Below are positions 22,009-60,692 of a stretch of DNA of 64,000 bases, piece by piece. The DNA comes from an uncultured Pseudomonadota bacterium (lineage in GTDB: Bacteria; Pseudomonadota; Alphaproteobacteria; Rs-D84). The notes beneath the pieces are model-generated. The model ran no database searches. It worked only from the letters and a program-made list of their open reading frames with translations, and was not told the DNA's origin. How positions within the stretch are numbered: position 1 is the stretch's first letter; each line of letters begins with the position of its first letter. The translations under genes were made by a program, and so were the position numbers. The stretch covers positions 400,958 through 464,957 of the forward strand of contig CACYHO010000001.1 of NCBI GenBank assembly GCA_902774285.1, given 5' to 3'.

Positions 22009-22037
22009 TTGATTTTTTAGTGATTTTATGATATAAT
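22009..22037 (+). promoter_or_regulatory. Promoter of MuF-GH108 gene
   Basis: TTGATT-N17-TATAAT with TGn. Confidence 0.75.
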
Positions 22038-22050
22038 AGTTCACATATTC

Positions 22051-22076
22051 AGACGGCATTTTGCCGTCTTTTTTTT
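22051..22076 (+). terminator. Terminator-like hairpin inside the 5' leader
   Basis: AGACGGC-ATTTT-GCCGTCT followed by a T run, before ATG 22097. Confidence 0.7.
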
Positions 22077-22096
22077 ATTTAACAAAAGGATATTTT

Positions 22097-23263
22097 ATGC
22101 AAACACCAAAGTTTTTACGCAATCTGTTGCAATCAAATGATTACTGGAATAAAAATTCCACAGAATTTGCAAAAGCAAATGAATATCTGGAAACTTTGTT
22201 TCCAGGACAATTACAGCAAGATGCAACAGGTCAATATATTGAACCAAAATACGATATGACATATGAACAGTTTGTAAACGCGCAAAAGAAATTAGATGAA
22301 GCTATTCAAGATGCAATACAGGATGCCGAAGCGGAAGCAGAAGAAAAAGGGATGTCGGTCGATTATTCACAATTTGTGGAAGTCGAAGAAGAAATAGATG
22401 TTCGTATTTTAATGCCTTGGGGCGATATAGAAAATGAAAAATTGATTGTTTATACATTGAACATCCCAGATGACGATGAAGAACCAGAAAAAACAAAAAA
22501 GATTTGGATCTGGCACAGCGAAGATGACGAACGTATTTGCGATGATTGTGCATCACATGATGGTGAAGTATTCGAAGATAAAGGCGATATTCCAGATATC
22601 CCTGTGCATCCTAATTGTCGTTGCTGGGTTGAAGAAGTAAAGTTAGATAATAACGGCAAACCAATTTCTAGCAAAGTCTATAAAGGTCAAAAGCCAGAGA
22701 ATAAAACAGATAAAAATGAGACACAAGATATGAAAATGAGCGATGATACTAAAAAATTCGACCAAGCATATAATAATTTGAAAGAACGCGAAGGCGGATA
22801 TACAACCGGCAAAAATCAGAAAAAAGATGAACCAACTAACATGGGTATAAAACAAAGTACTTTGGATAAATATTCTGCGAAATACCCAGATAAAAATTTT
22901 CCGCAGGATGTAAAAGATTTAGAAGAATACCAAGCAAAAGAGATATATAAGAGCGAATACTGGGATAATACAAGAATACCGCAAATAGAAAATGATAGAA
23001 TACGTAACGCGGTATTTGATATGAACGTTATGGGTGGCGCAGGAAAAGTTGTACAAAAAGCGATAAACTCTTTTTCTGATACAAATTTAAAGGTTGATGG
23101 TGTTATAGGCAAAGAAACAATCAAAGCTATAAATGCAATTCCAGATACAAAGATTGAAGAATTTATGTCAACAATAAAGTCTGAGAGAATCAATTATTTG
23201 CAAAATACACAAAATTGGGAAACTGCGAAAAACGGATGGATAAAAAGGACTAATGCGTATTGA
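22097..23263 (+). CDS. Phage MuF (head morphogenesis) domain fused to glycoside hydrolase 108 lysozyme and PG-binding domain
   Basis: WIWH...CDDC..HDG...PVHPNCRC; EREGGY...TNMGI (GH108 EGGY); LKVDGVIGKET; GWIKR. Confidence 0.8.
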   Translation: MQTPKFLRNLLQSNDYWNKNSTEFAKANEYLETLFPGQLQQDATGQYIEPKYDMTYEQFVNAQKKLDEAIQDAIQDAEAEAEEKGMSVDYSQFVEVEEEIDVRILMPWGDIENEKLIVYTLNIPDDDEEPEKTKKIWIWHSEDDERICDDCASHDGEVFEDKGDIPDIPVHPNCRCWVEEVKLDNNGKPISSKVYKGQKPENKTDKNETQDMKMSDDTKKFDQAYNNLKEREGGYTTGKNQKKDEPTNMGIKQSTLDKYSAKYPDKNFPQDVKDLEEYQAKEIYKSEYWDNTRIPQIENDRIRNAVFDMNVMGGAGKVVQKAINSFSDTNLKVDGVIGKETIKAINAIPDTKIEEFMSTIKSERINYLQNTQNWETAKNGWIKRTNAY

Positions 23264-23692
23264 TTATTGCTTTGTCCAAAGACCTTCCACTGTCGCATTC
23301 ATACCACAAAAAGCATTATCTGAATCTGCGTTAATATAACGCAGATTCAATTCATTTTTAGATAATATTTGAAACCTTATACCGACAGGAATATTATATT
23401 CCGTATCTGTTTGATTATCGTATACATATTTTGTGGTTTTATATTCTGCAAAATTATTGTGTATTGTTAATTTTCCACTTACATCACATATATGTAAATC
23501 GTACCACGATTGAATAGTGAAACTGCAAGTTGAATCTGTACAATTAGAAATTATCATTTCGCCAGCCAAAGATGCGTCTGTATCATTTAATTGCCATTTC
23601 CCAGAAAAATACTCAGAATCAGATTGTTCACCAAGAGCATAAACTGGTAAAAGCAAAATACAAAAAAACAAACAGAAAACCAACTTTCTCAT
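23264..23692 (-). CDS. Secreted Cys-containing protein, candidate lysozyme inhibitor/immunity
   Basis: Signal peptide; stop codon abuts that of the MuF-GH108 gene. Confidence 0.55.
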   Translation of the reverse strand: MRKLVFCLFFCILLLPVYALGEQSDSEYFSGKWQLNDTDASLAGEMIISNCTDSTCSFTIQSWYDLHICDVSGKLTIHNNFAEYKTTKYVYDNQTDTEYNIPVGIRFQILSKNELNLRYINADSDNAFCGMNATVEGLWTKQ

Positions 23693-23770: not shown

Positions 23771-24160
23771 ATGAAAAAAATTATCGTGTTTTTTGCGTTC
23801 TTAGTCGGCTGTAGTTCTGCTAACAGTCAATCATGTGATTTATGTGGCAACTGGTCTTTTGACCGATTTGAATATGCCGGACACATAACCACAGACTGTG
23901 AAGGTATAGCACAACAAATTTTTAAGGATACGAACATCACAATCTCAGATAACTATTTTGCAAAAACATATATAACAGATAACAGTGCAAATACGTTCAA
24001 CAATGTGAATATTATTTACGGGGAATTTGATTCAGGTAAAAACGCCCAGGTAATTTTTATTACATCTGGGGATAAGCTGATTGAAAAATTATATAAATCA
24101 ACAAAAAATACAGTCTATTTATCTTTGGATGGTTGTGATTTTTATTTTAAAAGGGATTAA
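23771..24160 (+). CDS. Lipoprotein, hypothetical
   Basis: MKKIIVFFAFLVG-C lipobox. Confidence 0.65.
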   Translation: MKKIIVFFAFLVGCSSANSQSCDLCGNWSFDRFEYAGHITTDCEGIAQQIFKDTNITISDNYFAKTYITDNSANTFNNVNIIYGEFDSGKNAQVIFITSGDKLIEKLYKSTKNTVYLSLDGCDFYFKRD

Positions 24161-24889: not shown

Positions 24890-25390
24890 TTATTTTAATA
24901 AATATCTGACATCGCAAATTTTTCGATACTTTTTGTTGGATATAGATTCTATTTTATTGTTTTTAATTTCTGATACTTCCACATTTGCTTTTGTTGGTTT
25001 CATATAATCTTTGCCGGGTTTTCTGTATGCGCTTGTTATTGCGAACGGTTGCATTTGAAATTTATAAGCACGCAAGACACAGTCTGCGCCTTCTTGTGTT
25101 GTTAAACGTGTAAGCTTTGTACCGTTGTTTAGGTATATATCATAGAAAGTATAAGCGTGTGCTGTGCCAGTCACGAACCGACCACGTTTTATAGTATCTT
25201 TTTTGCCATCGTTGTTTATGTCTATGAAAAAAGTGTCCATTCTTTTGATTCCGTAATTATCAGGTAAATCAAATTCTTCGGTTTTGTCTGGTACTGGTAG
25301 ACCATCAGAAAAATCTGCAGTATATTCAAGTTGCCTTGAACATGCCGCACATAACAATAAAACAAAACATCTATTCAACACTTTCAGCAT
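24890..25390 (-). CDS. Lipoprotein, candidate immunity protein of upstream hydrolase
   Basis: Start MLKVLNRCFVLLLCAA-C at 25390 overlapping the upstream stop; paralog of 30280-30876. Confidence 0.65.
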   Translation of the reverse strand: MLKVLNRCFVLLLCAACSRQLEYTADFSDGLPVPDKTEEFDLPDNYGIKRMDTFFIDINNDGKKDTIKRGRFVTGTAHAYTFYDIYLNNGTKLTRLTTQEGADCVLRAYKFQMQPFAITSAYRKPGKDYMKPTKANVEVSEIKNNKIESISNKKYRKICDVRYLLK

Positions 25391-25976
25391 GACATCTGCA
25401 TCCGTATTCTTCCCCCGGATGTGGAGAATCATACCATGTTCTGATTTCGCCGTCCAGTATTTCGTGTTCTGGTCTAACTTTATCATCACCAACGGTTACC
25501 CAAACATATTTTTCATGTTTAGAGACTAAACGTTTTTTACCTGTTATGTTTCCTTCGTGTCTGGCCATTGCTTTTGCTAACATAAGCAGATTATCTTTAG
25601 AAAGATTATTCATTGGTGTTGAACGTGGAAAACCTGTTTGTTTTTCTATAGATTTTAAATAATTGTCGACATTGTTTTCATTTGATGGTGCATACCTGTT
25701 TATTGCGCCTTCAATAGTTAAGTTTTGATATGCATTTGTTGATAACAAACCTGCCATAGCATTAAAACCAGTAGTTGTGTCAGGAAATATGGCGAATCTG
25801 CCGTCTGAACCAATAGCGCCATTATTGCGTGCAAATTTTCCATATTCTAAATTACCAGGGTTGTTATTGCGCCATGCTCTGCTACCACCACTGGCTTCAT
25901 AGATATTACCGTCGTTTCCAACGAACATTCTGTTGGTCCCGATTCCTGGAAATGCTGATATATAAGTTGGCTCCAT
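25371..25976 (-). CDS. Lysozyme-like (RNNNPGN) domain fused to C-terminal MuF domain
   Basis: GGSRAWRNNNPGNL...GRFAIF...RYAPSNENN; YVWVTVGDDKVRPEH..LDG...HPGEEYGCRC. Confidence 0.78.
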   Translation of the reverse strand: MEPTYISAFPGIGTNRMFVGNDGNIYEASGGSRAWRNNNPGNLEYGKFARNNGAIGSDGRFAIFPDTTTGFNAMAGLLSTNAYQNLTIEGAINRYAPSNENNVDNYLKSIEKQTGFPRSTPMNNLSKDNLLMLAKAMARHEGNITGKKRLVSKHEKYVWVTVGDDKVRPEHEILDGEIRTWYDSPHPGEEYGCRCHAESVE

Positions 25977-26002
25977 TTATAACTCCTTTAGATTTTTTAT
26001 AT

Positions 26003-26070
26003 AAAAAAAAGACGGCAAAACGCCGTCTGAACATGGTAAATATTATACCATAAAAGCATAAAAAAATCAA
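26003..26070 (-). promoter_or_regulatory. Promoter plus leader terminator, homologous to 22009-22076
   Basis: TTGATT-N17-TATAAT (TGn), then AGACGGC-GTTTT-GCCGTCT and T8. Confidence 0.75.
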
Positions 26071-29609: not shown

Positions 29610-30288
29610 ACAAGAAGATTTGCAATCTTTACAGTCTGGTCACAGAGCGCGCTTGCGTAAAAAGTTTCTTGATGGTCAATTAACGGAATATGAAATTTTA
29701 GAATTGTTATTAACCTATGCAATTCCACGTCGTGATGTGAGAACTTTATCAAGACAACTTTATAAGAAATATGGAAGTTTACATCATTTATTGGCTGCAC
29801 CAATAGAATCTTTGATGGAAAACGAAGGTATCAAAGAAAACACGGCTACTTTTTTCAAAGTTATACATAAATTAATGGAATTAGAATATAAAACCGTATT
29901 AGATACGGCACCAATATTTCATAATTTCGAAAAATTAGAAAATTATTGCAAAATATTATTATCAGGTAAAGCAATTGAAGAATTTCATGTGCTTTATTTA
30001 GATTCGCAATATAAATTAATCAAAGATGAATTACACAGCAGTGGAACAATTGATTGGGCGGCAGTATATATTCGCGAAATTGTTAAGAAAGCATTAGATT
30101 TAAATGCGAGCAGTATAGTTATGTTGCATAATCACCCAAGTTCTTATACTTCTTTTTCATCGCAAGATATTGCCATCACGCAAGAATTAGAAAATGCGTT
30201 AGAAAAGCTGGGAATAGGCTTATATGACCATTTATTAGTTTCTGGTGATGTAATTTATTCTGCACGTAATATGCATTTATTAAAATAA
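29602..30288 (+). CDS. radC: RadC-family JAB domain protein
   Basis: GHRARLR, ELLLTYAIPRRD, HNHPS, DH. Confidence 0.9.
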   Translation: MIKQEDLQSLQSGHRARLRKKFLDGQLTEYEILELLLTYAIPRRDVRTLSRQLYKKYGSLHHLLAAPIESLMENEGIKENTATFFKVIHKLMELEYKTVLDTAPIFHNFEKLENYCKILLSGKAIEEFHVLYLDSQYKLIKDELHSSGTIDWAAVYIREIVKKALDLNASSIVMLHNHPSSYTSFSSQDIAITQELENALEKLGIGLYDHLLVSGDVIYSARNMHLLK

Positions 30289-30876
30289 TTCTTTGATATC
30301 ACAAACACTGCGTAATGATTGTGTACCGTCAGATTTTAATTTGTTCCCAGAAATTTTGAATACTTGTTTGCGTGCCACCGTTGGTGTATCCCATGTTTCT
30401 GCCAATTCACGATATATCAAAATCACTTTGAAAGTTGGTTTAAAAACGAATTGTATTTGTTGTAAATCGCATACATCACCATTGGTTGTTCTAAAATTAT
30501 TTGGGGTTATATCAACAAATTTACCATCAATATTTAATTCTATTTTATATTGGTAATACGAATGAGCATTTCCTGTTTCAACAAATGTTTTTGTTATTCT
30601 GTCGTTTATTTTGTCGCGGTTAATATCAATATAGAAAATACTTTTTTCTGATATGCCAGTGCCATATTTATCTAATTGGTATTTCGTTACAGAATCAGGA
30701 TCTTTTAATCCATCAGAAAATGTGTTTTTTTGATACACGAATTCATCGCTGAATACAGGAGTGCTTGATTCAGCACCAGAATCCATTTTATTGTGTGTTT
30801 TATTATAAAGAAAGAAAACCAAAACACATAAAACAGCGATTGCTATAATTAATATCAAATTTCTATGTTTATTCAT
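30280..30876 (-). CDS. Membrane-anchored exported protein, candidate immunity; paralog of 24890-25390
   Basis: Shared FSDGL..PD, IDIN.D...D, TG.AH.Y..Y.I.LN, C.L, CD...L. Confidence 0.65.
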   Translation of the reverse strand: MNKHRNLILIIAIAVLCVLVFFLYNKTHNKMDSGAESSTPVFSDEFVYQKNTFSDGLKDPDSVTKYQLDKYGTGISEKSIFYIDINRDKINDRITKTFVETGNAHSYYQYKIELNIDGKFVDITPNNFRTTNGDVCDLQQIQFVFKPTFKVILIYRELAETWDTPTVARKQVFKISGNKLKSDGTQSLRSVCDIKELF

Positions 30877-30886
30877 ATTTTATACC

Positions 30887-31852
30887 TTACATTTTTTGTT
30901 CCGTTCCAACACCCCATCCTTCGACTGTTTGAATAGCACGTGCAATTTTAAACAAATCGTTATCACTTAAATTACTGATTTTGGCATCAGCAGCAAGGCC
31001 AGTCATATTTGATACGCGTCTTGAATAATTTTCAGGATTATTTCCATCACTAAAAGGCGCCCATTTATGAATCGCGTCTTTGACAGATAAATGATTATAA
31101 CTGTTGCTGCGTAATAATTTGGTTATCGCACGTAAACCAGTTTCTTCGTCTGGGAAAACAGCCCATTTGTCTGTTTCGCCAATGGCACCGTTTTCATAAG
31201 CGAATTTAGATTTTCTTATGTTTCCAGGGTTATTGTTGCGCCATGCAGCAGTTCCGCCGATTCTTTTGATCTTGGTACCGTCGTTTGTTATATACACTGT
31301 CGTCTTGTTTTCGTATTCAACCCTGGCAATATCAGAAACATGAAAACCAGAAGAAGTCGATTGTTGATTCAGACTTTCTATTAACATATTGTCAGTGTTA
31401 TCTGTGAAAACTGGTCCTGAATCAATCATATTAAAATTTTCATAAAGTAAATTTTCATCAGATTTACCAAGTTTCTTATTACGTATTTCTAATAATTCAT
31501 CAACGGCTGCACGTGATATCTGTTTGACTTCACATTGTTGTGCAAATAAATCTTTGCCGTATATGATAGTAACGATAGGTTTTACTGCGCCAAGTATGCA
31601 CAATATTAACAGCAATGTTTTTGCGTTATTAAAAACAGTGTTTATTTTTATTCCATTTTTAATGTATAAAACGCCCCAACCAAAAATTATAACAGCGGTC
31701 AGAATTAAAATAACCATCCATGCATATTCAAGCAAAGTATCGAATGCCGGAAAAATACATGAAGGATCTTGGAAATAAATAAAATCAGATTCTACACGGA
31801 CTTTTTCAAGTCCAGAATTGATAAGTAAATTAAGAATGGTTGTTTCGTCCAT
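30887..31852 (-). CDS. Two-TM protein with C-terminal lysozyme-like RNNNPGN domain
   Basis: GGTAAWRNNNPGNI...KWAVF...KWAPFSDGNNPENY; homologous to the N-terminal domain of 25371-25976. Confidence 0.75.
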   Translation of the reverse strand: MDETTILNLLINSGLEKVRVESDFIYFQDPSCIFPAFDTLLEYAWMVILILTAVIIFGWGVLYIKNGIKINTVFNNAKTLLLILCILGAVKPIVTIIYGKDLFAQQCEVKQISRAAVDELLEIRNKKLGKSDENLLYENFNMIDSGPVFTDNTDNMLIESLNQQSTSSGFHVSDIARVEYENKTTVYITNDGTKIKRIGGTAAWRNNNPGNIRKSKFAYENGAIGETDKWAVFPDEETGLRAITKLLRSNSYNHLSVKDAIHKWAPFSDGNNPENYSRRVSNMTGLAADAKISNLSDNDLFKIARAIQTVEGWGVGTEQKM

Positions 31853-49622: not shown

Positions 49623-49700
49623 TTGACTTTTATGTCAATTTGTGATATTATATAACACATCAAGAATAGAAATTTTGCCCGCAATATTGCGGCTTTTTTT
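49623..49700 (+). promoter_or_regulatory. Promoter of phage-like cluster followed by a leader terminator
   Basis: TTGACT-N17-TATTAT (TGn); CCGCA-ATAT-TGCGG plus T7 at 49677-49700. Confidence 0.65.
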
Positions 49701-49763
49701 ATTCAATATTTTTGCCTGCACTTTTTGTGCGGGCTTTTTTTAACAAAAAAACAGGTCTTGAAC

Positions 49764-50174
49764 ATGCAGTTAAATTTAATAACAAATAACGATGATACAC
49801 AAATCGTATCATATAAATTGGCACGTATAATATTTGCAGAAACAGATGCTTTGTCTTTGCAAATAGTGGAAGCAATGGCTTCGATGATTAACAATATTCA
49901 TATTAAATATGATAAATCATTTGAATCTATTGCAAAAGATAATGATTTATTTGAATGTTTAAATTCAAAATCATCACGTAATAAAAATTTAAATGTTGCT
50001 GCAAATGACAGAAAATTCCAAATGTGTTTGCGTGTTGTTCAAACAATGATGCGTGGTAATTTACAAGATACTGTATTCGGTGCAACAAAATTTCATCATG
50101 CAAATATTATTCCACAATGGGCAATGTCACGTGGATATATATCGGAATGTGAAGATATTTTGTTTTATTTGTAA
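49764..50174 (+). CDS. SleB/Hydrolase_2-like cell wall hydrolase (endolysin-like)
   Basis: LARIIFAE, FECLN, GATKFHH...PQWA...ILFY. Confidence 0.75.
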   Translation: MQLNLITNNDDTQIVSYKLARIIFAETDALSLQIVEAMASMINNIHIKYDKSFESIAKDNDLFECLNSKSSRNKNLNVAANDRKFQMCLRVVQTMMRGNLQDTVFGATKFHHANIIPQWAMSRGYISECEDILFYL

Positions 50175-50188
50175 ATAAAGGATAAACG

Positions 50189-50407
50189 ATGAATAAAATA
50201 ATAAAAGGTGGATATTTACAAGACAAAAAAACTTATGTTGTATCAAGTGTCGGAATAATATCTGCCGTTGGTGCTTATTTAATCGGCGATGAAGATATTT
50301 TTACAATGATGCAAACAATATTTACATTAGGCGGTATTTATTTTCTTAAACAAGAATCTTCAACCAAAGGAAAAAACAATGGAAAACGTTCCAGAAAAAT
50401 TTCTTGA
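50189..50407 (+). CDS. Holin-like small membrane protein
   Basis: KKTY then two hydrophobic segments and a basic tail; follows the hydrolase. Confidence 0.55.
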   Translation: MNKIIKGGYLQDKKTYVVSSVGIISAVGAYLIGDEDIFTMMQTIFTLGGIYFLKQESSTKGKNNGKRSRKIS

Positions 50408-51035
50408 TGACAAAGGTGAATTAAACACATCGGCGTTAGTAAAATCATATTGTGAATTAGAAAAAAAGATGAGCAATATGATTTCTGTTCCAAATGATGA
50501 CAGTGATGAAAATGTAAAACAAAAATTTAATCATGCAATTGGTGTTCCAGAAAATGCTTCTGAATATCCAACGAACGATTTGTTCGATGACGAATCGGTT
50601 CGTAATAAATTTCATGAAATTGGTTTAACAAAAAAACAAGTTGAACAAATTTATTCTATCGCTGAAGAATTTTTACAACCAACATTAAAAAATTTATTTG
50701 AATTACAAAATCAAACAAATGCGATTAATGAATTAAAAAATTTTTTTGGTGGAACAGAAAAAATGAATGATGCATTGCGTGAAATAAAAGCATTCGGTGA
50801 AAAATATTTACCAGCATCTGCGTTTGAAGAGCTGTGTGCTACACCCCAGGGAATACAAGGCGTGTACAAAATGATGCAATCTTTTGAACCGACAGTTTTA
50901 ACAGATAAAAATGTATCAGAAAATTTAACTGATGATATGTTGCGTAACATGATGCGTGATCCAAAATATTGGCGTGATCAAGATCCAGAATATGTTCGTA
51001 AAATTGAAAATGGTTTTAAGAAATTATATTCATAA
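50379..51035 (+). CDS. Capsid scaffolding/assembly protein (podovirus-type)
   Basis: VPEKF...LVKSY.ELEKK...GVPE; C-terminal MRDPKYWRDQDPEYVRKIENGFKKLY. Confidence 0.78.
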   Translation: MENVPEKFLDDKGELNTSALVKSYCELEKKMSNMISVPNDDSDENVKQKFNHAIGVPENASEYPTNDLFDDESVRNKFHEIGLTKKQVEQIYSIAEEFLQPTLKNLFELQNQTNAINELKNFFGGTEKMNDALREIKAFGEKYLPASAFEELCATPQGIQGVYKMMQSFEPTVLTDKNVSENLTDDMLRNMMRDPKYWRDQDPEYVRKIENGFKKLYS

Positions 51036-51132
51036 ATAATTTTTATTCTTTACTATTTGTTTTGATTCATATAAAATATGATTAAGAACAAAATAAATTT
51101 TGTTCTATCCAAAACATAATAAGGAGAGAATC

Positions 51133-51426
51133 ATGTTCTTTAGTTCAAAGAAAAAATGTGCATGTGCAAAAGCTGCTGCTAAACCAGCTGCAAAAAAAGC
51201 ACCTGCAAAAAAAGTTGCTGCTAAAAAACCAGCTGCAAAAAAACCAGTTGCTAAAAAACCTGTAGCAAAAAAACCAGTTGCAAAAAAAGTAGTTGCAAAA
51301 AAAGCTCCTGCTAAAAAACCAGCTGCAAAAAAAGTAGTTGCTAAAAAAGCTCCTGCTAAAAAACCAGCTGCAAAAAAAGCACCTGCTAAAAAACCAGCTG
51401 CAAAAAAAGTAGTTAAGAAAAAATAA
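51133..51426 (+). CDS. Histone H1-like Lys/Ala/Pro-rich DNA-binding protein
   Basis: Repeats of [15 protein letters not shown]; RBS AAGGAG. Confidence 0.8.
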
Positions 51427-51669
51427 GAATTTGCGCAAATATTTTGCGTGATTTTTTATATGTCATCCCCAAAGCGTTTGTTTTGGGGATTTTTTTGATA
51501 AATTTTTCAGTTAGATATTATATGTCTAACTGAATTTTTTATTGGATAATCCATTTTTGGACCCTTTTTTGTGTTTTGTATTTATGGCGCGATATTTTTC
51601 GCACAACCATTAATCAAAATTTTTCAAATGCGCGTAAGCGTTTTTTAATTTAAACAAAAAGGATTTCTT

Positions 51670-52491
51670 ATGTCTATGTCTGTAGATCAAGTGTTTATAA
51701 AACAATTTGAAGCAGATGTTCATTTGGCTTATCAGCAAATGGGCACAAAATTACGCTCTACAATTCGTAGTAAATCTGGGGTTGTGGGGACTTCTACTAC
51801 TTTCCAAAAAGTTGGCAAAGGTATTGCCAGCACAAAATCACGTCATGGGATTGTTCCTGTGATGAATTTGAATCACACACCTGTTGAATGCACATTGCAA
51901 GATTATTATGCAGGCGATTGGGTTGATGCATTGGATGAATTGAAAACTAATGTTGATGAACGTCGTGTAGTCGCTTCTGCTGGTGCTTATGCTTTGGGTC
52001 GCAAAACAGATGAATTAATCATCAATGCTATGAATTCTGCAACACAATATGTTGGTGATTATTCAACAGGTTTAACAAAAGCTATGATCATGGCTGCTTT
52101 GGAAAAATTGAACGCAAACGATGTTCCAGATGATGGTCGCAGATTTGCTGTTGTTGGTGTTCACCAATGGAACGAATTGTTGAAATTAGACGAATTCGTT
52201 TCTTCTGATTATGTTGGCGGTTCTACACCTTTGGTAGATGGTTGCGAATCACGTAAATGGTTGGGTGTTAATTGGATTTTATGCAATGCATTGCCATTAA
52301 GCAGCGACGATCGTGATTGCTTTATGTATCACGCATCCAGTATCGGTCATGCTTGTGGTCAAGAAGTTAAAACAGATATCACATGGCATGGTGAACGTGC
52401 CGCTCACTTTATCAGCAACAGCATGTCTCAAGGCGCTGTTTTGATTGATAACGATGGTATCGTTCGTTTGAAATGTGATGATGACGCATAA
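51670..52491 (+). CDS. Major capsid protein (BPP-1-like podoviral family)
   Basis: SVDQVFIKQFEADVHLAYQQMGTKLR, DWVDALDELK, ALGRKTDELII, WLGVNW. Confidence 0.88.
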   Translation: MSMSVDQVFIKQFEADVHLAYQQMGTKLRSTIRSKSGVVGTSTTFQKVGKGIASTKSRHGIVPVMNLNHTPVECTLQDYYAGDWVDALDELKTNVDERRVVASAGAYALGRKTDELIINAMNSATQYVGDYSTGLTKAMIMAALEKLNANDVPDDGRRFAVVGVHQWNELLKLDEFVSSDYVGGSTPLVDGCESRKWLGVNWILCNALPLSSDDRDCFMYHASSIGHACGQEVKTDITWHGERAAHFISNSMSQGAVLIDNDGIVRLKCDDDA

Positions 52492-55438: not shown

Positions 55439-55975
55439 ATGTATAAAATCTCTTATGTTGGGGACGGAGAAACAACAGAATTCACGTTTTCTTTTCCGTT
55501 CTTTCAAGAATCTGATATCAAGGTAAGCATTGATAATGAAATATTAAATAATACCCAATATGATGTTAATCCAAATGATGATTTTACCGGTGGTATAGTT
55601 GTGTTCGCAAATGCCCCGACAAGTAATCAAAACATAGATATATTTCGTCAGGTAGATTTATCACGTGTGATTGATTATCAACCAACATCAAAAATAGATC
55701 CAGAAGATTTAAATTCTGACTTTAATTTTTTATTGGCTGCATTGCAGGATATAAGAACAATAGATATCGATTTAGCACAATGGTCAAATGTTCATGATAA
55801 TCTTTTGAATAAAATAGATTATGTCATAGACACCATAGAAGATAAAATGTCAGGCGGCGCGATATTGGGTTTATATTATAATCTGGTATCTGTATTGGAA
55901 GATTTAATAAATGATTATGGTTCTGTTGATGAAGATGCAGACGATGAAAACAATGACGATTACGGAAGCATTTAG
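55439..55975 (+). CDS. Tail-fibre N-terminal adaptor domain only (T7 gp17 N-like)
   Basis: YVGDGETTEFTFSFPFF...IKV...R; EDLNSDF; no distal fibre domain. Confidence 0.7.
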   Translation: MYKISYVGDGETTEFTFSFPFFQESDIKVSIDNEILNNTQYDVNPNDDFTGGIVVFANAPTSNQNIDIFRQVDLSRVIDYQPTSKIDPEDLNSDFNFLLAALQDIRTIDIDLAQWSNVHDNLLNKIDYVIDTIEDKMSGGAILGLYYNLVSVLEDLINDYGSVDEDADDENNDDYGSI

Positions 55976-56552
55976 TTTTTTAGACGCTTGGAATAAAATT
56001 TTAGGCTTTAAAACACCAGAGCATCATAAACAGATAATAAGTTTTCTGGTTGATGTGTTTAACAATGAACCGCGTCGCGGTCTGTTAAACGCTTTCCGAC
56101 ATTCTGGTAAATCGACAGTTGTGGGTGTTTTTGCAGCTTGTGTTTTATATCATAAGCCAGAAAGCAGAATTTTGATATTATCTGCAGAATCAGGGTTGGC
56201 ATCACGTATGGTTGCCCATATAAAAAATATACTTGAAAATCATCCGTGGTGTGAAGGTGTTGTACCAGAAGTAAAAAAAGAATGGGGTTCGCATAAAATA
56301 ACAATTAACAGACCTGTTGGAATTCGCGAACCTTCTGTTATTTGTCAGGGTATTTCTGGAAATATAACTGGTATGCGTGCAGATTTGATAATATGTGATG
56401 ACGTCGAAGTTCCGAATACGTGTAATACGGCACAAAAAAGGGTGAACCTGCGTGAAAGATTGCGCGAACTTGATTTTATACTATCGCCAAAGGGAACAAT
56501 GATTTTCATTGGAACCCCACATACACAAGACACAATATATAAAGTCGAATAA
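55953..56552 (+). CDS. Large terminase, N-terminal ATPase half
   Basis: AFRHSGKST (Walker A), ITGMRADLIICDDVE (Walker B), IGTPHT, then stop; start 55944 or 55953. Confidence 0.85.
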   Translation: MTITEAFSFLDAWNKILGFKTPEHHKQIISFLVDVFNNEPRRGLLNAFRHSGKSTVVGVFAACVLYHKPESRILILSAESGLASRMVAHIKNILENHPWCEGVVPEVKKEWGSHKITINRPVGIREPSVICQGISGNITGMRADLIICDDVEVPNTCNTAQKRVNLRERLRELDFILSPKGTMIFIGTPHTQDTIYKVE

Positions 56553-56553
56553 T

Positions 56554-57195
56554 TTATGAAAGAGATGACATAAATGTGCGAAGCTTTGCAAGCATTTCAT
56601 TACCCGCATCACCAAACATAGGAAGATATGTTTCGAACTCTGGCATGTCTGCTTGAATTTGTGCGCGGTTACGTTCGGATAATGTTTCTGATAATAATTC
56701 TTTGGCACTGTCCCAAATGCGATAAGCTTTATCTGTTTGTGCAACAACTTTCCATTTAGAAATCATGTCTTTGTCATGTGCGATTGCAGATTTAATATCT
56801 TCAACCCAATCATTACCAAATTTCTGAATGAATGTTAATTGTCTGATAGTATTCAAACCATCAATTGTTGGCTGGAATTCTTCCAGTGCATGTTTCAATT
56901 GATTGATTTCATCTTCGGTCAACGAAATATTTGCTTTTCGGTCAGACATCAAACCACCATATGGCAACAAATCTTTGTCTATAGTATCCATAGGTGTTTT
57001 ACCACTGCGCAGATTATTTATATGTGTAACGAGTTTTTTGCCTGTTGGCATAGATTCTAATTCGGCTATAACCTGGTCATCATTAGATTCTGTGATAAAA
57101 ACTTTGTTAACAGCAGCCCATCCGCCATCAATAACGTGAGCTTGACGATAAAGGTTCAATAAACGCTGTGCGATTGTATGTGCTTGTTGTTGCAT
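56554..57195 (-). CDS. Hypothetical protein
   Basis: 213-aa ORF, RBS GGGGAG; co-oriented with the HTH gene and dnaB. Confidence 0.7.
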   Translation of the reverse strand: MQQQAHTIAQRLLNLYRQAHVIDGGWAAVNKVFITESNDDQVIAELESMPTGKKLVTHINNLRSGKTPMDTIDKDLLPYGGLMSDRKANISLTEDEINQLKHALEEFQPTIDGLNTIRQLTFIQKFGNDWVEDIKSAIAHDKDMISKWKVVAQTDKAYRIWDSAKELLSETLSERNRAQIQADMPEFETYLPMFGDAGNEMLAKLRTFMSSLS

Positions 57196-57223
57196 TTTAT
57201 CTCTCCCCAGGTTATAAAGTGCT

Positions 57224-58231
57224 TTATTGCATAACTATCATGACAACTTTATGGAATGTTTTTCCTGTTATCTTTTCTTCAGGATTTGATACATGACCAA
57301 AAGTTTTGCCATGGCTATCTTGACGTACAACCACAATTTGTGCATCAACGATATCATCAGATGATAATTTTGTAAAATCTTCGTTTATGCATACAGCCAA
57401 ATCACCAACCTTTGGTTTTGTTGTAGCGTCTACGAAAACATAAGAAGATTCTGGTATGAAACCACCCAGTCTTTTTGAATTAGGAATAACAGCATATATT
57501 CCATTGCGGCCTTCTAATGTAGTAGGTGCAACAATCATTGTTTCGTCAGATTTCTTCAATTTGATGTTTTTGCCGGCAGGCTTACCGAAAACAGGAACCA
57601 ATTTTTTGCGTGCATTATCATACAATTGTGCACCGTAAAGACCACCATGAATATCCAAACCTGATATTGGGTTGACAGGTTCCAAAACAGATTTAACGCG
57701 TTCTTTGACTTTGTTAATTTGTTTTGTTAATTCACCAGCCTTATACAGTTTTGCGATTTCATCAAACAATTCAGATGCACTGTATCCAAAAGCATGAGCC
57801 AAAGTATCGATTTCGTTTTCATAAACTTCGCGTTGACCAACTTCGATTTTATGATAAACAGACAATGTCATTTTTGCATCTTTGGCGGCCTGAGCAATAG
57901 TTTTTTCTTTGCGTTGACGGATTTTGCGAAGTCCGGAACCGAATATTTTCAATCCGCTGTCTTCGTTGTCATTTAAACGGCGCTTGATTTCATTTTGCCA
58001 ATTTTGCGCGACAGAATCAGATTCGTGAATAAATATATCTGACAATTTGCAGCCCAATATTGTGCATACATTTAACAACTGTTTTTGATTAAGACGACGA
58101 ACGCCTTTTTCAATCTTTGATACAGCAGAAAGTGATAAATTAGCACGACGTGCCAATTCTGTCATTTTCATACCTTTGCTTGCACGAATATTGCGAATAT
58201 TATTTGGAAAAATGATTTCTTCTTGTGCCAT
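57224..58231 (-). CDS. Repressor-like protein with two XRE HTH domains and an S24-like C-terminal domain
   Basis: NNIRNIR...LARRANLSLSAVSKIEKG; LRKIR...AKMTLSVYHKIEVG; VPVFG...YVFVD..KPKVGD; RBS AAGGAG; TTGCCA-N17-TAATAT promoter. Confidence 0.75.
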   Translation of the reverse strand: MAQEEIIFPNNIRNIRASKGMKMTELARRANLSLSAVSKIEKGVRRLNQKQLLNVCTILGCKLSDIFIHESDSVAQNWQNEIKRRLNDNEDSGLKIFGSGLRKIRQRKEKTIAQAAKDAKMTLSVYHKIEVGQREVYENEIDTLAHAFGYSASELFDEIAKLYKAGELTKQINKVKERVKSVLEPVNPISGLDIHGGLYGAQLYDNARKKLVPVFGKPAGKNIKLKKSDETMIVAPTTLEGRNGIYAVIPNSKRLGGFIPESSYVFVDATTKPKVGDLAVCINEDFTKLSSDDIVDAQIVVVRQDSHGKTFGHVSNPEEKITGKTFHKVVMIVMQ

Positions 58232-58297
58232 GACCGGACTCCTTGATATCATGTTGACAAAATATTAGTCAATTTTTAAGGGCTTGGCAAGTAAAAA

Positions 58298-59845
58298 TTA
58301 AATCATATCATCAGGAATATCGTTAATGTCAGCAACTGTTTGGACATTTGTATCTGATACGGTCGCATACTGTTGATCATTATTGGCATCTGCGAAAGGT
58401 TGAACACCGTATTGATTAAGGTTATCAAACAAGTAATATTCACCAGTGAAGCTCAGGTGAACTGTTTCTGGTTTACCGTGACGGTTCTTTGCTATGATGA
58501 TGTCTGCTTTGTTGCGAACACTGTCTAAACGTTTTTGCCAATTCTGCATAGAGGTTTCTGATGCGGTGCCAGATAATTTTTTATCAGGGGAACGACCTTC
58601 AAGATAGTATTCTTCACGATATGTGAACATAACAATATCGGCATCTTGTTCGATAGATCCGGATTCACGCAAATCTGACAACACAGGTCTTTTATCATCA
58701 CGTTGTTCGACGCTTCGTGATAATTGGGACAGTGCGATAACAGGTACATCTAATTCTTTGGCCAATATCTTTAATCCACGGGTGATTTCTGATAATTCTT
58801 GCACGCGGTTATCATTGTGTTTACCACCAGGAGAAGTCATCAACTGTAAATAGTCGATAACAATCAAAGCCAAACCGCCGAATTGACGTGCGATACGACG
58901 TGCACGTGTTTTTATCGCGGCCACAGACATATTTGCAGTATCGTCAATAACAACAGGTACTTTCGAAAGGGCATCGCTGTATTGCGACATCTTTGTAAAA
59001 TCTTCATCTGTTAAATTACCATCACGCATGTGTGATGCAGGTATTTTTGATTGTGAAGATAATACACGTGCCGCCAATTGAGAATATGACATTTCAAGAC
59101 TGAAGAAAGCAACTGCGCCTTTGTATTGATTGTTTGCGCGGCCGTTTAAAATAGCATTTGCAGCATTGAAAGCGATATTCATTGCCAATGTTGTTTTACC
59201 CATACCTGGACGTCCAGCAATAATAATCAAATCAGAATGGTGCAGGCCGCTGATTGATTTATCTAAATCGTCTAACCCTGTGGTAAGACCAGACAATTTA
59301 CCATCGGCTTTGTATGCAACAGCTGCTTCTTGTAAAGCGCTTTGTAATGCATCTGCCAAAGATACTATATTGCGTTCGCTTTGACCCGTAGAAGCCAAAT
59401 TAAACAGTTTCTGTTCGGCAGATTCTATTTGATTATTTACGGTTTTATCCAAATCTTCGGTGTATGCATCATCGATAATGCTTTGACCCAATTGAATCAA
59501 ATCACGACGGCGCGCATTATCAAAAACAATACGTCCATAATGTTCAACATTGACAACAGTAGATCCCGCTGATGCTAATTTGGATAAATATTCAACACCG
59601 CCGACACTTTCCAATGTGCCTTGTTGTTCAAGGTATGTTTTTGCAGTGATTATATCAAAAGGGACCCCGACAGCAAACTGACGCATAGCCAAACGATAAA
59701 TTTCTTGGTGTGCTGGATGCGAAAAATGTTCTGGTAACAAAAAGTCTGATACAGATTCCAATGCGCGGTTGTTCATCAATACCGCGGCCAGCACAGCCTG
59801 TTCGGCTTCTAAATTAGTAGGTAAAGTTTTCGGAGTAAAGTCCAT
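58298..59845 (-). CDS. dnaB: Replicative DNA helicase
   Basis: EAEQAVL, AGRPGMGKT, IDYLQL, LSQLSR, DLRESGSIEQDAD; start 59845 or 59851. Confidence 0.96.
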   Translation of the reverse strand: MDFTPKTLPTNLEAEQAVLAAVLMNNRALESVSDFLLPEHFSHPAHQEIYRLAMRQFAVGVPFDIITAKTYLEQQGTLESVGGVEYLSKLASAGSTVVNVEHYGRIVFDNARRRDLIQLGQSIIDDAYTEDLDKTVNNQIESAEQKLFNLASTGQSERNIVSLADALQSALQEAAVAYKADGKLSGLTTGLDDLDKSISGLHHSDLIIIAGRPGMGKTTLAMNIAFNAANAILNGRANNQYKGAVAFFSLEMSYSQLAARVLSSQSKIPASHMRDGNLTDEDFTKMSQYSDALSKVPVVIDDTANMSVAAIKTRARRIARQFGGLALIVIDYLQLMTSPGGKHNDNRVQELSEITRGLKILAKELDVPVIALSQLSRSVEQRDDKRPVLSDLRESGSIEQDADIVMFTYREEYYLEGRSPDKKLSGTASETSMQNWQKRLDSVRNKADIIIAKNRHGKPETVHLSFTGEYYLFDNLNQYGVQPFADANNDQQYATVSDTNVQTVADINDIPDDMI

Positions 59846-60692
59846 GTCCATTAGATTAAACGAAAATTTTCAGAATTCAATACCTTTTTTACGTGGGTAT
59901 AAACAATTAAAAATACCTATCTTGGACAGTGCTGGAAATCCGGCCTGGCCAGAGATGTTCCCAATAGAAAAAGTACATGAATTAGAAGACATTGTGGGGC
60001 CGCGACATTTTTCTGCACAAATGATGCTGGAATATGTCGCACAAGAGCGCATTCATTTGGATCCGGGGGCATTGCATTTTTATGCAAGCGATTTTGATGT
60101 TTATAATAATCGAATCGGTGATAATAACATTACAGGTGTTGCTTTTTATTGGGATCCTTCAACTGGACAAAGAAATTGTGATGGCAGTGTTTGTGCACTG
60201 ATATATCGTGATGATAAAAACAGAAATGTTTTTGTTCATGATGTTTTGTATATGGAAGTCAGCGATGACGATATGCATCCGTTAAGTAATCAATGTGATT
60301 GCGTTCTGGATTTTATGCAAAAACACCATTTAACAAGAATCGGTATAGAAATAAATGGTATTGGAAATGCGTTACCCGAAATTATGCGTAATATCGCACA
60401 AAATCGTAATGTTCAAATAAACATTGCCCAAATTTCAAATCATACAAAAAAAGAAACACGAATTGTGAATGCTTTGGAACCACTGTTGTCCACAGGTCAT
60501 CTTTATATGCACGAAAAGATAAAACAAACAATGTTGTTATCAGAAATGTTGGCTTGGACGCCCGCGGGTTCCAAAGAACACGATGATGGACTGGACGCTG
60601 TTGCAGGCGCGATATCTATGATGCCTTTGCCGGTAAGAGTATACGGAAAATCATCACAACAAATTCAAGCAAATACAGAATTTAAAGTATAA
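59844..60692 (+). CDS. Large terminase, C-terminal nuclease half
   Basis: PFLRGY..L.IPILD..G.PAWPE.F linker; YWDPS, IEING, KKETRI, HDDGLDA (RNase H fold). Confidence 0.85.
   Translation: MSIRLNENFQNSIPFLRGYKQLKIPILDSAGNPAWPEMFPIEKVHELEDIVGPRHFSAQMMLEYVAQERIHLDPGALHFYASDFDVYNNRIGDNNITGVAFYWDPSTGQRNCDGSVCALIYRDDKNRNVFVHDVLYMEVSDDDMHPLSNQCDCVLDFMQKHHLTRIGIEINGIGNALPEIMRNIAQNRNVQINIAQISNHTKKETRIVNALEPLLSTGHLYMHEKIKQTMLLSEMLAWTPAGSKEHDDGLDAVAGAISMMPLPVRVYGKSSQQIQANTEFKV

Follow-up and report, generated by a model that had tools for sequence, protein, structure and literature searches.

A polymorphic MuF-lysozyme gene as candidate cargo of a T7-like particle, and the likeness of its N-terminal motif to the particle's scaffold C-terminus

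We analyzed a 64,000-nt stretch of DNA from an uncultured alphaproteobacterium (the window; positions refer to it unless they are prefixed C1, which denotes the genome contig), with a focus on the gene at 22097-23263. This gene encodes a protein of 388 residues that combines a MuF head-protein domain with a GH108 lysozyme domain, and that we refer to as the effector. The explanation that we favor, for which the evidence seems to us about evenly balanced, is that the effector is a polymorphic peptidoglycan-attacking cargo of a vertically inherited T7-like particle in an order of small-genome gut Alphaproteobacteria. This explanation builds on the domain architecture of the protein, the similarity of its N-terminal motif to the C-terminus of the scaffold protein of the particle, a cis-regulatory signature common to the effector and particle genes, swapping of the C-terminal domain, and co-variation of a partner gene with that domain. 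For the comparisons below, effector and scaffold genes were gathered from 60 relatives, which together with the window genome (an 855-kb assembly, 77% complete) gave a set of 61 genomes.

The effector gene starts with an ATG at position 22097, 6 nt after an AAAGGA ribosome-binding site, and its orthologues begin at the same Met. A preliminary description of the locus, made from the sequence alone, had seen a MuF domain with CxxC and HPNCRC motifs followed by a GH108 lysozyme, and both domains were borne out by Pfam: Phage_Mu_F (PF04233) scored 31 bits, above its cut-off of 29.6, and 32.5 bits when the whole genome was searched, and Glyco_hydro_108 (PF05838) had an E value of 8.5e-15. The PF04233 match was confined to the C-terminal half of the domain (profile positions 57-111) because the MuF domain appears to be split in this protein, as detailed below. 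PG_binding_3 stayed below its cut-off in the effector (22.6 versus 24.6 bits) and reached E 1e-10 in one relative. The PHROGs assignments, to endolysins and to head-morphogenesis and minor-head-protein families, agreed with Pfam, and a fold search with the AlphaFold2 model of the effector returned lysozymes and weak MuF matches and nothing else. CDDC and HPNCRC were invariant, and the catalytic EGGY motif of GH108 was intact, with E232, G233, G234 and Y235 conserved. The gene is divided as follows:

22097..23263, + strand: coding sequence of the MuF-GH108 effector, 388 residues (open reading frame, Pfam, PHROGs, conservation, AlphaFold2)
22106..22204, + strand: N-terminal motif, residues 4-36 (KFLRNLLQSNDYWNKNSTEFAKANEYLETLFPG), assigned to the N-terminal half of the MuF domain; helices predicted at residues 5-11, 14-17 and 22-34
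22205..22498, + strand: clade-specific insert, residues 37-134, with a DATG..YDMT block, an acidic helix (56-83), a beta-hairpin (94-121) and an acidic loop
22499..22639, + strand: C-terminal half of the MuF domain, the knuckle, residues 135-181 (WIWH...CDDC...HPNCRC; PF04233 positions 57-111)
22640..22741, + strand: post-knuckle strand and junction linker, residues 182-215, of which 202-214 are predicted to be disordered; exchange point of the C-terminal domain
22778..23251, + strand: GH108 lysozyme with intact EGGY, then a PG_binding_3-like region (Pfam, conservation, fold match to phage lysozymes)

The preliminary description had also claimed that the N-terminus of the effector resembles the C-terminus of the scaffold protein encoded elsewhere in the window, next to the capsid gene. 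The elements concerned are these:

50379..51035, + strand: T7-type scaffold protein (Pfam PF05396, E 3.6e-9), adjoining the Phage_capsid_2 capsid gene
50931..51032, + strand: scaffold C-terminal motif, residues 185-218 (DDMLRNMMRDPKYWRDQDPEYVRKIENGFKKLYS), homologous to the C-terminus of T7 gp9
51670..52491, + strand: major capsid protein (Phage_capsid_2; Pfam, homologues in relatives), the presumed docking partner

The scaffold motif and the T7 gp9 C-terminus (...MIKAMSDPRYRTDANYRRQVEQKVIDSNF) are one and the same element, and the scaffold gene was single-copy in 51 of the 61 genomes, with a C-terminus that is near-invariant among the relatives, L[RK].MM.DP[KR]YWRD.D.E[FY]..K[IV]..GFK.LY. The consensus of the N-terminal motif in the effector family is K.P..I..LM.S.AY.NS..P.H..V...V..YF. 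When 27 N-terminal motifs were aligned with 48 scaffold C-termini by hhalign, the score was 29.0 (P 4.5e-7), against a mean of 8.1 and a maximum of 15.2 for 300 column-shuffled scaffold profiles and 7.4 for the reversed scaffold. Offered the full-length scaffold profile, the same motifs found their best local alignment in the last 32-34 scaffold residues (P 9.4e-6). An independent set of 22 motifs, obtained from a search of 1.84 billion representative proteins, aligned with that full-length profile over 34 columns ending at the scaffold's last residue (P 8.3e-7).

Searches of individual sequences gave a similar picture. A hidden Markov model (HMM) of the 22 independent motifs was run against 14,784 sequences, consisting of 14,688 six-frame open reading frames of the genome, 48 scaffolds and 48 reversed scaffolds. 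The effector ranked first (E 6.7e-6), scaffolds took ranks 2-15, 17 and 19-32 (best E 9e-5), and the reversed scaffolds ranked at 256 or lower; the best open reading frame of the genome other than the effector itself was the genome's own scaffold. In a six-frame search of the 61 genomes with the motif alignment, the top match outside the family was again a scaffold C-terminus, that of genome G040, with which the motif of one relative, P0134, shares 18 of 33 residues (E 2e-5). AlphaFold2 models from separate alignments showed a helix, a short helix and a long helix in aligned register in both segments; in the scaffold these helices span residues 185-192, 195-199 and 203-217 and are preceded by a disordered stretch. 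With profile-profile P values of about 1e-6 and shuffled controls that never came close, the claimed resemblance between effector N-terminus and scaffold C-terminus was confirmed by these alignments at the level of the families; it is weak for the pair of window proteins taken alone.

The likeness is limited to the last ~34 scaffold residues. No PF05396 match was found by Pfam on the effector or, at E values up to 10, on ten N-terminal peptides, so that the effector falls outside this family at full length, and by sequence it is not a scaffold protein. The motif HMM did not find gp9 in the T7 genome. A tblastn search of 50,697 phage records with the short trunk and the scaffold yielded weak matches to the MuF knuckle and five distant scaffold matches, and the motif in none of them. 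In the PDB, no T7 gp9 chain was found by sequence and no MuF structure by profile.

As to what the motif is, several comparisons identify it as the N-terminal half of a MuF domain. In short-form relatives from other genera the motif leads directly to the knuckle without the insert, and when the representative library was searched with a profile built from this short trunk, the profile aligned over its full length with the C-terminal MuF domain of ordinary MuF proteins of ~260-300 residues. The motif Tyr lies 40 residues from CxxC in a short form, compared with 41 in a canonical MuF protein, the Pfam MuF model spans positions 20-112 on one short form, and hhalign matched the motif to the canonical MuF N-half with P values from 3.5e-5 to 5.8e-6. 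On this sequence evidence the motif is the N-half of a MuF domain that has been split, in the clade of the window genome, by an insert of ~100 residues. The separate tag in front of the MuF domain that had been suggested for this protein is thus colinear with part of that domain. Likewise, what had been described as a very acidic linker (residues 37-134) contains the invariant blocks DATG..YDMT..F and I.V..LMP.G...L..Y.L..P, a predicted acidic helix of 28 residues and a predicted beta-hairpin, and it interrupts the MuF domain. Conservation entropy was 0.88 bits for the motif and 0.77 for the knuckle, compared with 1.56-1.81 for the linkers, which makes the motif about as conserved as the knuckle.

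A second link between effector and particle lies in their promoters and leaders. Upstream of the effector gene we found a strong extended -10 promoter, followed by a GC-rich hairpin plus T-run and then by the ribosome-binding site, and the same hairpin layout recurs in orthologues and at the head of the phage-like gene cluster. The sites involved are:

22009..22037, + strand: effector promoter TTGATT-N17-TATAAT with extended -10 (TTGATTTTTT...TTTATGATATAAT), one of five copies of the signature in the genome
22051..22077, + strand: terminator-like hairpin (AGACGGCATTTTGCCGTCT) with T-run, in the leader between promoter and ribosome-binding site; a predicted antitermination checkpoint
26042..26070, - strand: promoter of a second MuF gene with the same signature (converted from C1:427027)
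49623..49734, + strand: head of the T7-like cluster, with a signature promoter and then two terminator-like hairpins (49679-49692 and 49714-49734), from a promoter and hairpin scan
C1:172448-173504, + strand: signature site before a T7-fibre-N gene (311 residues; T7 tail fibre N-domain)
C1:489911-490594, - strand: signature site before an Mtd_N tail gene (193 residues; Mtd_N domain)
22009-22099 (+), 25976-26070 (-) and 49623-49766: signature with leader region at the three window sites; at all five sites of the genome the signature is followed by one or two terminator-like hairpins

A generic search of the genome for an extended -10 promoter followed by a hairpin with T-run and an open reading frame gave seven sites, of which four were the two MuF genes and two tail-fibre-type genes that are unlinked to the cluster. 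The specific signature, TTGAYTTTT-N9-12-TRTGNTATWAT, occurred exactly five times in 855 kb, namely at those four genes and at the cluster head; this count by itself is circular, since the pattern was derived from the same sequences, a problem from which the generic search and the cluster promoter scan are free. The hairpins at the cluster head are not terminators of the upstream gene, because that gene is divergent, and more hairpins lie between cluster genes. The whole-genome search found exactly two MuF domains, both behind the signature promoter. The signature was also present upstream of MuF effector genes and cluster heads in relatives, including other genera, and on an unrelated metagenome contig.

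The cluster itself is a podovirus-like set consisting of a cell-wall hydrolase, a holin-like gene, the scaffold, a histone-like HC2 protein, the Phage_capsid_2 capsid, tail tubular proteins A and B, a fibre adaptor, a two-piece large terminase split by a dnaB block, and a portal. The capsid gene was single-copy in 53 of the 61 genomes of the order, at 65-96% identity, while the scaffold falls to ~30%; this pattern indicates that a chromosomal phage-derived capsid gene is under strong purifying selection. The relation of the unlinked effector gene to this capsid cluster, as proposed in the preliminary description, held up in that the two are 27 kb apart and yet carry the same signature, found at only five sites in the genome. 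The comparison of these upstream regions supports the view that the effector gene belongs with the T7-like particle despite the distance. By analogy with gene transfer agents (GTAs), the dispersed loci would be subject to antitermination-type control.

The third part of the evidence concerns the C-terminal enzyme. A search with the trunk (residues 1-200) returned 166 homologues with 47-94% trunk identity that carry three types of C-domain: GH108 (PF05838), GH24 phage lysozyme (PF00959) and Tlde1/YkuD (PF10908/PF03734). C-domain types were clustered on the last 130 residues, since the junction linker is common to all. In P0003, with 94% trunk identity, GH24 takes the place of GH108, and the switch occurs right after ...DMKMSDD, within the segment that AlphaFold2 predicts to be disordered; the exchange points of the family lie after ...KGQKPE or ...DMKMSDD. 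Across the order there are also forms with a pesticin-like lysozyme or an M23 peptidase, which brings the total to five peptidoglycan-directed domain types. Going by these domain assignments, every C-domain of the family acts on peptidoglycan.

The gene next to the effector changes with the C-domain. Beside the Tlde1 type it encoded one of two families of small membrane proteins (six of six cases), beside the GH24 type within the genus a single lipoprotein family (four of four), and beside the short GH108 type a secreted GH108-like paralogue that lacks EGGY (five of five); one GH24 form (n=1) had a gene for an LprI lysozyme inhibitor. In the window the two relevant genes are:

23264..23692, - strand: exported protein of 142 residues, convergent with the effector gene and with its stop abutting the effector stop; candidate cognate immunity protein
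23771..24160, + strand: lipoprotein of the family that trails GH24-type effectors in relatives, an orphan here behind a GH108 effector (family comparison)

The 142-residue partner is kept beside long-form GH108 effectors in two other genomic contexts, at 68-74% identity. The orphan lipoprotein belongs with another C-domain type than the one now present, and we therefore take it as the probable footprint of a past C-domain swap. This arrangement, with a separate exported partner for each domain type, looks like that of classic polymorphic toxin-immunity systems, protection of kin being our inference from the gene layout. The toxin reading put forward earlier for this gene gained ground in its polymorphism, with a C-domain that is swapped among the 166 trunk homologues and an exported partner that co-varies with the domain type. 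An enzyme serving only lysis, or only DNA entry, is not expected to show such a layout. As a separate observation, the short-GH108 partners (loci L081, L082, L018, L021 and L084), encoded immediately downstream of the effectors, match PF05838 (E 5e-4) on the second half only and without EGGY, and such a partner may be a dead-enzyme decoy that acts as immunity.

Several findings speak against the cargo explanation or against a special role of the scaffold-like motif. In a BLASTP comparison of the two window proteins, the best pair (N-terminus 3-26 with scaffold 184-207) was weak, with an E value of 0.067, and the short forms on their own also matched the scaffold weakly (P 0.011). The check proposed with the preliminary description, an HMM of scaffold C-termini searched against the proteome, recovered the scaffold and failed to place the effector in the top 13 (E above 13); this model is very narrow, with an effective sequence number of 2.6, and the reverse HMMs (from motif to scaffold) and the profile-profile comparison did succeed. 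When the alignment was cut in two, the long forms owed most of their signal to helix 1 (P 4.6e-7), and helix 2 contributed for the short forms (P 3.6e-4); much of the scaffold match lies in helix 1, which canonical MuF domains share too. The effector gene is located outside the structural cluster, among host genes, and its counterparts in relatives occur in varied chromosomal contexts. Two genomes, G030 and G054 (both about 94% complete), have a MuF effector with the motif and no detectable capsid or scaffold homologue. Since nearly all of the 61 genomes have the capsid, the presence of the effector did not track it.

Because the motif aligns with the canonical MuF N-half, MuF folding or portal binding alone could explain its conservation, and the alternative closest to our own explanation is that the effector is packaged through ordinary MuF-portal binding, in the manner of SPP1 gp7, with the scaffold likeness arising as a by-product of a helix-turn-helix pattern and without a shared binding site. 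Canonical MuF proteins do align along the entire short trunk with equal spacing; the hhalign and Pfam coverage results given above, the location of the strongest scaffold match in helix 1, and the internal rather than terminal position of the motif in P0134 all fit this view. We nevertheless consider it rather unlikely, since the match to the scaffold continues through the turn and helix 2 up to the last scaffold residue, and scaffolds occupied the top ranks in the independent HMM search. The motif and the scaffold have in common a turn with the pattern [DN]P.[YFH] at +6 relative to the Tyr, and a helix 2 that ends in V..GF..LY, whereas canonical MuF proteins have R.A.TE in this region. Moreover, hhalign detected no significant likeness between canonical MuF N-halves and scaffold C-termini, though the motif family matches both. 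From this dissimilarity it would follow that the motif family has moved towards the scaffold pattern, and our reading of the alignments is that the MuF N-half drifted or recombined in that direction.

Another alternative is that the effector is a late lysozyme that opens the producer's own wall for release of the particle, with a MuF part that has no role in loading. The late-type promoter in common with the cluster, the absence of a signal peptide from the effector, and the fact that GH108 and GH24 are typical endolysin folds would agree with this. In addition, GH108 or GH24 lysozymes of ~170 residues that stand alone, with no MuF part, are present behind the same promoter in three genomes (G031, locus L013; G008, L016; and G018, L026), a pattern that fits a lysis role. 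We regard the lysis alternative as improbable, however, for the cluster starts with its own cell-wall hydrolase and holin-like gene, and in relatives the place of the C-domain is taken by Tlde1 (an L,D-transpeptidase-type effector), pesticin-like or M23 domains. Each type moreover comes with an exported partner, in one case an LprI lysozyme inhibitor, which an endolysin does not need, and the conserved head-protein domain would be left unexplained. The weakest alternative, a particle-independent polymorphic toxin that leaves the cell by another export route or by lysis and shares the promoter through co-regulation under the same stress, could point to Tlde1 domains known from type VI effectors, to one relative labelled VgrG by a source, and to the effectors of G030 and G054, but is very improbable given that no type VI secretion sheath gene (TssC/VipB) was found in the genome (assembly 77% complete), that MuF is a head-protein module with both genomic copies behind the particle promoter, and that all five signature sites precede virion-type genes.

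In the cargo explanation as we envisage it, read-through control, binding to capsid or portal, packaging, ejection, enzyme activity and immunity would be linked in the following way. The effector gene would be driven by the particle's own late-type promoter, and its leader terminator would be passed only when the particle programme is on. The MuF domain, known as a head-incorporation module from SPP1 gp7-type proteins and split here, would bring the effector into the assembling head, where the N-terminal helix-turn-helix, patterned like the capsid-binding element of the scaffold, probably docks at the same inner-capsid site. The enzyme would be retained in the head, unlike the scaffold, and would exit through portal and tail on delivery. 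In the periplasm of the recipient, the enzyme at the C-terminus, which is GH108 here and GH24, pesticin-like, Tlde1 or M23 in relatives, would cut or remodel the wall, and the adjacent exported protein would protect kin. The more specific proposal within this explanation, that the MuF N-half took on scaffold C-terminal sequence as a loading signal, through which swappable wall enzymes are co-assembled into a domesticated head, is one that we put forward tentatively, as possible rather than probable.

Individual parts of this proposal have counterparts in known systems. The C-termini of the P22 and 80alpha scaffolds are coat-binding helix-turn-helix elements, which offers an analogy for the scaffold motif. 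The T4 capsid-targeting sequence and the cargo-loading peptides of encapsulins are short terminal elements that send a protein into an HK97-fold shell. T7 gp16 is an ejected internal core protein with a transglycosylase domain. The effector resembles gp16 in its proposed role as a wall-cutting enzyme that is carried in a podovirus head and ejected to the periplasm; it has no sequence similarity to gp16, is much smaller, is encoded away from the cluster, and occurs in polymorphic forms that have immunity-like partners. No T7 gp16-like core protein was found in the genome, and the cluster lacks gp15/gp16-type core proteins, which would leave room for other ejected proteins. With T7 gp9 and PF05396, the effector shares a C-terminal pattern of ~34 residues, L..MM.DP.Y(W)...DP.[YF]..KV..GF..LY, predicted to form a helix-turn-helix; only this segment is shared, and it is N-terminal in the effector (internal in some relatives) and C-terminal in the scaffold. 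The T4 and encapsulin loading elements are unrelated in sequence to the effector motif. In procapsids of T7, SPP1 and 80alpha, cryo-electron microscopy has shown inner-capsid density that is consistent with the coat-binding domain of the scaffold (PMC12005531). Engineered encapsulation in P22 uses the C-terminal region of the scaffold itself fused to cargo (PMC9962691); that case is engineered, whereas the putative one described here would be natural, and no natural precedent for cargo loading by a scaffold C-terminus was found in the literature searched.

SPP1 gp7, which has the PF04233 domain in common with the effector, is directed to the procapsid and attaches to the portal, at 1-2 copies in each capsid; injection has been proposed for MuF toxins (PMC5576092). 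The gp7 protein differs in having no enzyme domain, in an N-half that reads S.AY..R.A.TE where the effector has LM.S.AY...NP.H, and in belonging to a siphovirus rather than to a T7-like head. In overall design, the toxins of temperate phages known as MuF polymorphic toxins (Jamet et al. 2017, PMC5576092) come closest; they likewise have a MuF domain, a variable C-terminal toxin and a small adjacent open reading frame; there, too, the small downstream gene was proposed to confer immunity, and head loading and injection were proposed. Those toxins are encoded in prophages, mostly from Firmicutes, alongside the portal and terminase genes, and they act in the cytoplasm, while the effector gene is chromosomal, 27 kb from the cluster instead of in a prophage packaging module, and its product would be wall-directed; the main text of that paper names neither lysozyme nor peptidoglycan (PMC5576092). 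Further differences are the exported partners, the alphaproteobacterial host, the split MuF domain and the N-half that resembles a scaffold C-terminus. In the effector, moreover, the MuF domain comes first, and the N-terminal region of ~150 residues seen in canonical MuF proteins is absent. For the regulatory part, antitermination has been reported to unite dispersed GTA loci through GafYZ in Caulobacter (PMC11150451) and in the Bartonella BaGTA (bioRxiv 10.1101/2024.11.20.624540). The present loci are similar in being dispersed domesticated-phage loci with putative terminators to read through, and differ from the Caulobacter and Bartonella regulons in particle type and cis elements.

The system is of interest chiefly because a candidate natural signal for capsid loading becomes open to direct testing. 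If the loading model holds, the effector would be the natural counterpart of the engineered fusion of scaffold C-termini to cargo for filling phage capsids, and would illustrate the re-arming of a domesticated phage particle through exchangeable enzymes. It would also broaden the MuF polymorphic toxins by adding enzymes that act in the periplasm, alphaproteobacterial hosts, and a particle fixed in the chromosome instead of prophages, and the five-site promoter-terminator signature would constitute a concrete regulon for a so far undescribed T7-like particle, whose capsid gene is conserved at 65-96% identity throughout an order of bacteria that are common in gut and rumen. Should loading by scaffold mimicry apply, the particle would amount to a capsid-borne, kin-discriminating protein-delivery device, either bacteriocin-like or wall-opening, with immunity genes that mark safe recipients.

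The second MuF gene of the window has a different architecture:

25371..25976, - strand: second MuF gene, 201 residues, with an RNNNPGN hydrolase-like N-domain and a C-terminal MuF domain, followed by a gene for an exported protein at 24890-25390

Both the RNNNPGN domain and the exported neighbor have paralogues on the minus strand, at 30887-31852 and 30280-30876, respectively. The first of these is a protein of 321 residues with 42% identity in the N-domain, and the exported proteins, one behind each of the two hydrolase-type genes, form one family (35% identity, E 1e-22). By this resemblance the second MuF locus looks like a second type of hydrolase-immunity pair. The scaffold-like motif was absent from the RNNNPGN protein of G040.

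Decayed copies of the effector were seen in several relatives: at G002:C4 (L002/L088) the gene is frameshifted or interrupted by a stop, at G017:C16 (L087) a remnant of 37 residues is left, and at G029:C7 (L083) the gene is split. The effector family turns over quickly. Within the particle cluster, the lysine-rich HC2 histone-like gene lies between scaffold and capsid in the region 51100-51534, with three consecutive terminator-like hairpins (51431-51534) before the capsid gene. The large terminase occupies two frames on the plus strand, with the ATPase and nuclease parts at 55911-56552 and 59769-60692, and the minus-strand segment between them (56554-59851) holds three genes, namely a gene of unknown function encoding 213 residues, a double-HTH (helix-turn-helix) gene at 57224-58252 and dnaB.

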